64,000 bases of DNA from Vicinamibacteria bacterium (lineage in GTDB: Bacteria > Acidobacteriota > Vicinamibacteria > Vicinamibacterales > JAENWD01), in NCBI GenBank assembly GCA_963837165.1, contig CAWIMD010000002.1, forward strand, positions 184,143-248,142. The letters are read 5' to 3'. A program made the position numbers and the translations under genes. Positions 41,850 to 42,933 of the stretch are shown one piece after another. Every line of letters starts with the position of its first letter. The first letter of the stretch is position 1. The notes beneath the pieces were generated by a model. That model had not been told where the DNA came from. It was given only the letters and a program-made list of their open reading frames with translations, and searched no databases.

Positions 41850-42551
41850 GTGCACATCGCGCCCTCCGATTTCCTCACGATTGGCCTGCTGGTCCTGCTT
41901 GAAGGGCTCCTCAGCGCAGACAACGCGATGGTGCTGGCCGTGCTGGTCCTCGGCTTGCCCCGGGAAGACCAGCAGAAGGCGCTGCGCTACGGGATCCTCG
42001 GCGCGTTTGCCTTCCGGACCCTCGCGACGCTGCTGGCCGTGCACCTGATTCGGCTGGGCTTTGTCAAGCTGGCGGGCGGCCTGTATCTGCTCTGGCTGCC
42101 GTTCCACCACTTCTTCCGATCCGGCGACGCCGAGGCGCGCCGCGCCCCCCGGCCGGCGAAGCCCTGGCTGGGCCTGTCGCCGTTCTGGGCGACGGTGGTC
42201 AAGGTGGAGCTCACGGACATCATCTTCGCGGTGGACTCGATCCTCGTGGCGGTGGCGATGTCGCCGAAGCTCTGGGTGGTGCTGACCGGGGGCATCCTGG
42301 GGATCATGGCCATGCGGCTGGTCATCGGGCAGCTGCTCACGATCGTGCGCCGCTACCCGCCGCTCGTGGACGGCGCGTTCATCATCATCGCGTGGGTCGG
42401 TCTCAAGCTGCTGCTCGAGTGGGCGCACCTCGAGGGGTGGATCCCGTTCGAGATCCCGCAGCCGCTCTCGCTCGGCCTCATCGTGGCGATCTTCGTGGGC
42501 GCGTACACGTACGCGAGGAAGCAGGGCGCGATCGAGGTGGAGGAGCAGTAG
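41850..42551 (+). CDS. TerC-family integral membrane protein
   Basis: LLVLLEGLLSADNAMVLAVLV... and ELTDIIFAVDSILVAVAMS (paired TerC motifs). GTG start. Confidence 0.85.
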   Translation: MHIAPSDFLTIGLLVLLEGLLSADNAMVLAVLVLGLPREDQQKALRYGILGAFAFRTLATLLAVHLIRLGFVKLAGGLYLLWLPFHHFFRSGDAEARRAPRPAKPWLGLSPFWATVVKVELTDIIFAVDSILVAVAMSPKLWVVLTGGILGIMAMRLVIGQLLTIVRRYPPLVDGAFIIIAWVGLKLLLEWAHLEGWIPFEIPQPLSLGLIVAIFVGAYTYARKQGAIEVEEQ

Positions 42552-42618
42552 GCAGCAGGCAGCAGGCGGTAGGCAGCAGGCGGTAGGCAGCAGGCAGTGG
42601 GCAGTACGTAGGCAGTAG
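42545..42618. repeat. Tandem heptamer array (GGCAGCA/GGCGGTA/GGCAGTA), about 10 units
   Basis: Overlaps the terC-like stop codon and ends 1 nt before the stop of the 84-aa ORF. It is the reverse complement of the CTACTGC arrays. Confidence 0.9.
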
Positions 42619-42873
42619 TTACACCGCCTCAGGCGCAGCCGTCGCCGACAGCTGGCGGTCCAGCTCCGCCAGCGCCTCCTCGAGCATTCTCCGATGCGCG
42701 GGGCGGGTGGCCACCGCAAGGTCGGCCACTACGCGCGCGCGGGCCAGCAACACGTCGCGCCGGCGCGCCTCGGCTGCCAGGGCCGCGTCCGACAGCCGGC
42801 GCCCGGGATCCCCGGCCGACGCGGCGTCGGCCTGCTGCGACTCGATCGCTTTGCTCTCCCATCCTCGCGCCAT
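42619..42873 (-). CDS. Small conserved-looking hypothetical protein (84 aa, N-terminus MARGWESKAIESQQ)
   Basis: Track ORF. Helical, Arg/Ala-rich. I recall the N-terminal ARGWESK motif from hypothetical proteins, but I cannot name a family. Confidence 0.5.
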   Translation of the reverse strand: MARGWESKAIESQQADAASAGDPGRRLSDAALAAEARRRDVLLARARVVADLAVATRPAHRRMLEEALAELDRQLSATAAPEAV

Positions 42874-42877
42874 CAGT

Positions 42878-42933
42878 CTAATGCCTACTGCCTACTGCCT
42901 ACTGCCTACTGCCTACTGCCTACTGCCTACTAT
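42878..42933. repeat. Tandem heptamer array (CTACTGC) x8
   Basis: ctaatgc (ctactgc)x6 ctactat. Begins 5 nt upstream of the 84-aa ORF's ATG and contains the uxaC stop codon. Confidence 0.95.

Follow-up and report, generated by a model that had tools for sequence, protein, structure and literature searches.

Within a 64,000-nucleotide stretch of acidobacterial DNA (positions 184,143 to 248,142 of contig CAWIMD010000002.1, GenBank assembly GCA_963837165.1; hereafter the window), a small gene of 84 codons lies between a terC-family membrane protein gene and the glucuronate isomerase gene uxaC, enclosed by two mirror-image arrays of a GCAGTAG-type heptamer, here called array A on the terC side and array B on the uxaC side. 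Comparison with close relatives indicates that a DNA inversion of exactly this cassette, whose open reading frame (ORF) we call ORF84, happened in the lineage of the window, and we describe the site as a microsatellite-associated micro-inversion with operon reassignment in an uncultured Vicinamibacterales-like soil acidobacterium. As to the origin of the mirror arrays, our preferred reading, held at a probability of roughly 0.55, is that they are the halves of one array split by a single inversion, rather than two earlier arrays that recombined with each other; the arrays are more likely to be the product of the flip than its agent.

The closest homologues of ORF84, with 78–80% protein identity, were found on four independent metagenome contigs (L004, L005, L006/L008 and L169), all of which keep the neighbourhood clpB-dnaJ-hspR / terC / ORF / uxaC-response regulator. 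On each of these contigs the ORF lies on the terC strand with its ATG overlapping the terC stop (GACTGATGG) and is convergent with uxaC, and in P0006, a more distant homologue, the gene is also co-oriented with terC. When the window is compared with L004 by blastn, only ORF84 is inverted and the flanks remain colinear: the colinear homology ends at 42544 and restarts at 42943, with the inverted middle between them (Table 1). The inverted match reaches L004 position 2996, which corresponds to GACTG, a relic that the window has kept next to the start of ORF84. A second relic is found at the 3′ end of terC, which reads ...ATCGAGGTGGAGGA followed by GCAGTAGGCAG... in the window and ...ATCGAGGTG.AGGACTGATGG in the relatives (junction alignment with L004, L005 and L006), or, in short form, ...GAGGTGGAGGA followed by GCAGTAG as against ...GAGGTG.AGGACTGA. 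terC has therefore lost its TGA and now stops at the TAG of array A. Because the relatives are all terC-co-oriented, and because both junction relics are present, the window arrangement is the derived one. The initial annotation had suggested that the arrays could support inversion of the cassette between the terC and uxaC transcription units; the past flip is borne out by the blastn comparison and the four relatives, but the notion that the arrays drive a reversible switch is not.

A second assembly (ENA ERZ25039539, contig_22010, 875 kb; loci L001/L170) is about 99.9% identical to the window and carries the cassette in the identical orientation. Over 20 kb the two are separated by 15 single-nucleotide polymorphisms (SNPs), four 1-nt insertions or deletions (indels) and one 62-nt repeat indel, and array B is one unit shorter in the ENA contig (6 units) than in the window (7 units); array A and a further array at 46037 are identical in both. 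Single-base insertions in the ENA assembly (window 38130 and 39032; L170 12630-15232) break clpB up into genes of 658 aa and 133 aa; the ClpB of the window is intact at 866 aa. These insertions are probably long-read errors, and single-base differences between assemblies call for caution; an error of this type is a less likely source of the 7-nt difference in array B, which is treated here as a copy-number polymorphism.

That inverted arrays bracket the 84-codon ORF almost to the base, as the initial annotation had it, is confirmed by Tandem Repeats Finder (TRF) and by an inverted-repeat search, although the exact boundaries need correction: array A abuts the stop codon of ORF84 with zero gap (GGCAGTAG/TTA) where a gap of 1 nt had been given, and array B, placed 5 nt upstream of the ATG, is separated from it by 4 nt (42874-42877). 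In the TRF output array A occupies 42545-42618 with 11.0 copies (74% matches, consensus GCAGTAG) and array B 42878-42931 with 7.7 copies (97% matches, CTACTGC), both of period 7; a third array, with 8.6 copies of ACTGCCT, is located at 24267-24326. On the plus strand array A is G-rich, with variants GCAGTAG, GCAGCAG and GCGGTAG and a 14-nt superperiod, and array B is C-rich; as inverted arms they extend over 55–58 nt at 81–85% complementarity, 266–285 nt apart. The two-unit 14-mer has 22 matches in the window (at most 2 mismatches) against 0.08 expected, all of them within the three arrays. The terC stop (42549-42551) lies inside the first unit of array A and, as had been noted from the outset, the uxaC stop (42930-42932) lies inside the last, degenerate unit of array B. 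The relations claimed for the third array were likewise upheld, since it is direct to array B with 28 nt of perfect identity and inverted to array A with 15 nt; it has no demonstrated link to the ORF84 inversion. As a separate matter, the ORF of the neighbouring PMT-like glycosyltransferase (24272-24326, minus strand) reads through this array into a 17-aa tail (...SRQQAVGRRQQAVGSRQ) that closes with an in-frame TAG, and because the ORF runs through the array to that stop, the array would form a new or extended C-terminus of the enzyme.

Table 1. Features of the ORF84 site, its alignment with the relative L004, and other repeat arrays of the window (window coordinates unless stated otherwise)
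Feature	Coordinates	Strand	Description
ORF84	42619..42873	-	84 aa, starts MARGWESKAIESQQ; small helical MARGWESK-family protein; inverted relative to close relatives
terC-family membrane protein gene	41850..42551	+	Pfam TerC E=8.7e-48; last two codons and stop (GAG CAG TAG) completed by array A
uxaC (glucuronate isomerase)	42930..44333	-	Pfam UxaC E=3.6e-74; colinear with L004 from 42943 on
Array A	42545..42618	+	~10.5 degenerate heptamers; from terC stop to ORF84 stop; TRF and inverted-repeat search
Array B	42878..42933	+	CTAATGC, then near-perfect CTACTGC; from 4 nt 5′ of the ORF84 ATG to uxaC stop; TRF
GACTG relic	42874..42878	-	just 5′ of the ORF84 ATG; equals last terC codon and partial stop (GAC TGA) of relatives; marks breakpoint 42877/42878
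Segment that would have been inverted in one step	42545..42877		ORF84-proximal half of ancestral array, ORF84 and 4-5 upstream nt; breakpoints 42544/42545 and 42877/42878
blastn match, left flank	40000-42544		L004 477-2997, colinear, 82.7% identity
blastn match, middle	42659-42878		L004 3215-2996, opposite strand, 78.6% identity
blastn match, right flank	42943-44610		L004 3391-5054, colinear, 79.4% identity
Third array	24267..24326	+	units CTACTGC, CTGCTGC, CTCCTGC; between convergent AraC-family and PMT-like glycosyltransferase genes
Inverted pair (CAACTCC)n and (AGTTGGG)n	6070-6100 and 6145-6191		44 nt apart
GGGATCTG array	28838-28971		x16; longest in window
GACGATT array			x8, GACTGATT-type; after rho
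Other arrays			ATGGGTTG; CCGGTTC; a 14-mer

The two mirror arrays can be fitted back together. When array A is reverse-complemented and set before array B, the units run on in perfect heptamer register (...CTGCTGC CTGCTGC CTACTGC / CTAATGC CTACTGC CTACTGC...), which makes a single inversion the simplest history. In the relatives the terC/ORF junction has zero intergenic space and no seed for a heptamer unit, so no array could have sat there, and the place where an array might have been seeded lies at the other end of the gene, where the uxaC stop of L169 reads GAGCAGTAG, a single GCAGTAG unit and a possible origin of the array. The relatives show the ancestral state, with terC leading into ORF84 (its ATG overlapping the terC stop), ORF84 convergent with uxaC, and a repeat-filled gap between these last two. 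In the lineage of the window this gap would have held one (CTACTGC) microsatellite of about 18 units, C-rich in the sense of ORF84, with its seed probably at the uxaC stop. One inversion of about 330 bp, broken at the terC/ORF84 junction on one side and within the array on the other, would have turned over ORF84 together with the adjacent array half and would by itself account for mirror-image arrays on either side of the gene, leaving a G-rich array beside terC, the stop of the ORF still joined to its array, the start of the ORF against the array remainder, and the uxaC stop untouched. As consequences, terC would be deprived of its TGA and terminated by the TAG in array A, ORF84 would be uncoupled from terC and transcribed only by read-through from uxaC, and the array halves would be able to pair in RNA. 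The event would be a fixed, lineage-specific micro-inversion flipping one conserved small gene.

Several observations weigh against the split-array reconstruction. No intermediate genome, with a forward ORF84 and a single CTACTGC array, is among the genomes found: a 49-nt degenerate pattern of the ORF84 5′ end has no exact match in metagenome contigs, and among the matches listed in protein-based MARGWESK scans of metagenome and genome contigs there are only relatives of 40–60% identity, none conspecific or intermediate; the loci compared do not include the NCBI record of the window itself. The closest relatives are only about 80% identical and have other repeat units in the ORF84/uxaC gap, namely a 9-mer hairpin in L004, 8/9-mers in L005, and a repetitive extragenic palindromic (REP)-like hairpin in L006 and L169. 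In L004 and L005 this gap holds an inverted pair with its G-rich arm on the left and its C-rich arm on the right, which is the polarity of arrays A and B and which a split array would leave as a coincidence. The contrast between a degenerate array A and a pure array B requires either an ancestral array that varied along its length or a later homogenisation of array B. The breakpoints have no clear microhomology, with an overlap of 1–2 nt only, and insertion of a whole number of units at the terC/ORF junction would be expected to give perfect register as well. Further one-step histories that start from an ancestor with a hairpin pair, by inversion of the ORF with the G-arm or of the ORF with G-arm and loop, were considered and set aside; they would leave direct arrays, not inverted ones.

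It may instead be that an earlier array of the same unit stood between terC and ORF84 and recombined with the array on the uxaC side, thereby flipping the cassette, possibly as a switch that is still reversible. We regard this as possible but rather unlikely. As would be expected of inversion by homologous recombination, the inverted repeats sit exactly at both ends of the inverted segment; the inversion itself is real (blastn against L004), the same unit occurs at several loci in the genome (24267-24326), so that its appearance at multiple sites is possible, and the G-left, C-right polarity is that of the native inverted pairs in L004 and L005. This history nonetheless needs an extra step, the insertion of an array into a zero-length, translationally coupled and seedless junction. 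Efficient RecA recombination needs roughly 20–30 bp of identity, and arrays A and B fall short of such an uninterrupted run, with a longest perfect inverted identity of 11 nt in their present state, which may differ from their state at the event. In addition, the variant units of array A are absent from array B, though crossover chimeras would carry them. The site does resemble known inversion switches (Hin/hix, FimB/E, the Bacteroides invertons and shufflons) in that a segment bounded by inverted repeats is flipped relative to relatives, with a change in the transcription unit of the gene. It differs in that the genes called within 10 kb on either side have no Pfam match to a recombinase, integrase or transposase, leaving the cassette without the adjacent recombinase of a site-specific invertase switch; in that its repeats are degenerate microsatellites and not defined crossover sites; in that its segment is a whole promoterless gene; and in that both available assemblies carry a single orientation. 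There is no sign of ongoing switching at the ORF84 site in either assembly, and the arrays are most likely not a working genetic switch. What probability remains beyond the split array and the recombination of an earlier array goes to more complex routes.

It is highly improbable, in our estimation, that the structure is an assembly artefact produced by a mis-join between inverted repeats, or that the arrays arose independently and bear no relation to the orientation of the gene. Assemblers can indeed be misled by inverted repeats, and the ENA assembly contains the single-base indels in clpB described above, but the orientation is the same in two independent assemblies, which come from different strains (15 SNPs in 20 kb), the structure is only about 390 bp long within contigs of 0.87–1.7 Mb, and the junctions bear relics specific to an inversion, GACTG and the new terC stop. 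As for coincidence, heptamer units do recur at unrelated loci, but with 1172 canonical heptamer classes available, a shared unit, adjacency and perfect register are together unlikely for independent arrays. The ORF84 site is of broader interest as a base-resolved case of a bacterial gene changing operon, by an inversion of about 330 bp of which both breakpoints can be read. The gene left behind takes its new stop codon from the microsatellite, and a long inverted repeat arises in the same step, which carries the caution that mirror-image repeats around a gene may be the product of an inversion and not its cause or the mark of a switch.

The mirror arrays would also have consequences at the RNA level. 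In the predicted fold of the minus-strand RNA 42945-42535, they pair over about 60 bp around the whole of ORF84 in both the minimum free energy and the centroid structures, with a fold energy of -255 kcal/mol against -205 +/- 6 for shuffles (z = -8), and arrays A and B folded singly are unstructured (z about +1.9). The initial annotation had proposed that the flanks pair into a long stem enclosing the ORF and controlling its translation or stability; the stem is indeed predicted, but no sign of selection was found for the role. Since any inverted repeat folds in this way, and since the relatives are without the arrangement, there is no demonstration of a selected function, and the predicted stem is best explained as a by-product of the inversion. 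We consider it improbable that the arrays are kept as a long stem of a uxaC-ORF84 transcript controlling translation or stability, or as an RNase III processing site, even though the stem is long, arises only from the two arrays together, and is spared in 5 of the 8 variant units of array A, whose T-to-C changes still allow G-U pairs in the minus-strand RNA. The other 3 of 8 variant units disrupt the pairing, every substitution is a transition, the most frequent kind of mutation in any case, and the arrangement is unique to the lineage of the window. Nor is there an Rfam match to support an RNA element, the only hit at E<=1 being a spurious microRNA match on a REP-like hairpin. The nearest known likeness is to the RNase III stems flanking 16S and 23S rRNA, where complementary flanks likewise enclose an RNA segment. 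The predicted duplex exceeds 20 bp, as follows from the inverted repeat itself; unlike the rRNA processing stems, the ORF84 arrangement is not shared by relatives. The likeness is confined to how such a stem might act. Neither a sigma-70-like promoter nor an intrinsic terminator is predicted in either gap beside ORF84, in agreement with the earlier claim that there is no room between the arrays for a promoter of its own.

The flipped gene itself appears to be in good order. Homologues of ORF84, 72–88 aa in length, numbered 208 at E<=1e-3 among 327 candidates, the few named ones being Vicinamibacterales, and a scan of GTDB species representatives for the MARGWESK pattern gave at least 511 confirmed relatives, nearly all of them from Acidobacteriota. 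A few matches (loci L014, L025, L063, L071 and L083) fall in bins assigned to Gallionellaceae, Bifidobacteriaceae, Verrucomicrobiia or Alphaproteobacteria, which may reflect either mis-binning of acidobacterial contigs or a rare presence of the family beyond the phylum. ORF84 has the features of the family, with a length in the range of 72–88 aa, an N-terminal MARGWESK..E.Q and a C-terminal helical hairpin R..ADL..AT.PAHR.MLE.AL..LD.QL, and retains 13 of 13 invariant and 8 of 8 near-invariant residues. Its ratio of nonsynonymous to synonymous substitution rates (dN/dS) is 0.13–0.18 against four close relatives, matching the range of 0.15–0.24 among those relatives, on which basis ORF84 is taken to be functional. 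The AlphaFold model (mean predicted local distance difference test score, pLDDT, 79) has helices at 5-20, 29-54 and 58-79, and nothing significant was found for the protein in Pfam, NCBIfam, a PDB sequence profile search or Foldseek-PDB. Judged from these comparisons of sequence, ORF84 is a genuine, functional gene of a conserved Acidobacteriota family under purifying selection. An argument from the Shine-Dalgarno motif was dropped: GGAGG/GAGGT is present in the terC 3′ end of close relatives and absent from the window, but occurs in only 32 of 169 family members.

Arrays of this kind are by no means confined to the ORF84 site. A survey of 168 Acidobacteriota loci (1.75 Mb), in which arrays with 4 or more copies were counted, gave 75 with period 7, 17 with period 8, 8 with period 9 and no more than 5 for any other period. 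There were 12 inverted pairs of the same unit, with gaps of 9–140 nt, against which the A/B pair is an outlier, its 259-nt gap enclosing a whole gene. The window itself has about ten further arrays, of 7-8-nt or 14-nt units, in intergenic gaps, and most begin 2–11 nt from a stop codon. One of these, the inverted pair at 6070-6191, is bordered by the lexA stop (6202, minus strand) on one side and by a small ORF downstream on the other, is predicted to form a long hairpin (-75 kcal/mol, z = -8.6), and has an architecture like that of the pairs in the ORF84/uxaC gaps of L004 and L005 and of the 12 pairs in other Acidobacteriota loci. The initial annotation had also asked whether MARGWESK homologues are repeat-flanked elsewhere: among 168 homologues of ORF84 an array is an occasional neighbour (upstream in 7, downstream in 6, on both sides in 2), and none lies between inverted arrays of the same unit, the 2 with arrays on both sides included. 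Enrichment of arrays beside the homologues was rejected, with 13 of about 336 flanking gaps against an estimated background of about 9% (from 0.87 arrays per 10 kb, assuming about 10 gaps per 10 kb).

Units recur between loci far more often than expected. Across the 168 loci and the window, identical canonical heptamer units are shared by 15 locus pairs, compared with 1.7 under a uniform expectation, among them AACTCCC (window, L044, L053 and L121), ATCCCGG (L053, L081 and L120) and AATCGTC, equivalent to GACGATT (window and the Terriglobia locus L078). Some of these pairs may be syntenic arrays in related genomes, and others suggest preferred units. On the strength of the sequences surveyed, the arrays are a generic feature of Acidobacteriota, belonging to the class of intergenic heptameric simple sequence repeats, slipping in copy number and as a rule beginning at a stop codon or next to one.

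Such repeats are known from other bacteria, and no report of heptamer arrays of this sort was found for Acidobacteria. Heptamers are described as the most abundant long simple sequence repeats (LSSRs) with 5–11-nt units in prokaryotes (Mrazek 2007, as summarised in PMC4679880). Of the GGGAATC arrays of Xanthomonas about 90% are intergenic; they lie near the upstream ORF, vary between species and form 70–75 convergent pairs per genome (Rehm et al. 2015, PMC4692102). Arrays of GGGGA(C/T)T occur in Nostoc, and the function of the heptamers in both genera is unexplained (PMC4692102). The likeness to this LSSR(5-11) class extends to tandem 7-nt units with period 7 favoured, an intergenic position near ORF ends, strain-variable length and convergent stem-loop pairs, and the arrays of the window display tandem copies beyond chance, location near ORF ends, abundance of period 7 and copy-number polymorphism. 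They differ from those of Xanthomonas and Nostoc in that Acidobacteriota genomes hold many different units instead of one dominant unit able to form G-quadruplexes, in that the GCAGTAG unit has GG runs only, and, for arrays A and B, in enclosing a whole gene where other Acidobacteriota pairs are much closer together.

The short tandemly repeated repetitive (STRR) heptamers of cyanobacteria and the TAACTGA repeats of Beggiatoaceae are also intergenic direct repeats, often beside start or stop codons (MacGregor 2015, PMC4679880). Such repeats contain stop codons in the "forward" orientation, and a role in rearrangement or translational regulation has been proposed only (PMC4679880). The arrays described here share with them the adjoining of start or stop codons by heptamer direct repeats, but where one unit prevails genome-wide and across phyla in those systems, the units here are diverse and have no linked regulatory protein candidate. 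Acidobacteriota are a dominant but little-studied soil phylum, and the finding that they have abundant intergenic heptamer arrays, often in hairpin pairs and with units recurring between genomes, extends to them the same unexplained phenomenon as in Xanthomonas and cyanobacteria. With this broader range of hosts, a general cause, either a slippage bias or a function at 3′ ends, gains in support. A bolder proposal, that the Acidobacteriota arrays are active hot-spots of breakage or recombination through which single genes flip, perhaps reversibly, from one operon to its neighbour, with a live gene-flipping switch at the ORF84 site that lacks a dedicated recombinase and with the paired arrays serving as an RNA processing or termination element of the relocated gene, strikes us as very unlikely.

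Further features of the arrays may be recorded here. In four co-directional gaps (6145-6191, 7880-7956, 46037-46073 and 56749-56777) the array is C-rich on the sense transcript right after the stop codon; for this sample of four gaps only, arrays acting as Rho-utilisation-like tracts would fit a genome in which no intrinsic terminator is predicted. In the array at 28838-28971 the GGG runs of the GGGATCTG units are spaced so that a G-quadruplex could form, and the unit resembles GGGAATC of Xanthomonas and GGGGATT of Nostoc; GGGATC-like units also occur in L025, L053, L081 and L120. This array is followed by a strikingly AT-rich stretch upstream of a HEAT-repeat gene (29052-30491). Lastly, in the spacer between clpB and dnaJ (window 40362) a 31-nt unit, GCCTGCGCTACATGTGAAGGCAGGCCTGAAG, is present in two more copies in the second assembly than in the window; this unit is part of a REP-like palindrome, GTAGCGC.GGGCTTCAGCCC.GC..., and palindromes similar to it take up the gap between ORF84 and uxaC in L006, L007 and L169.

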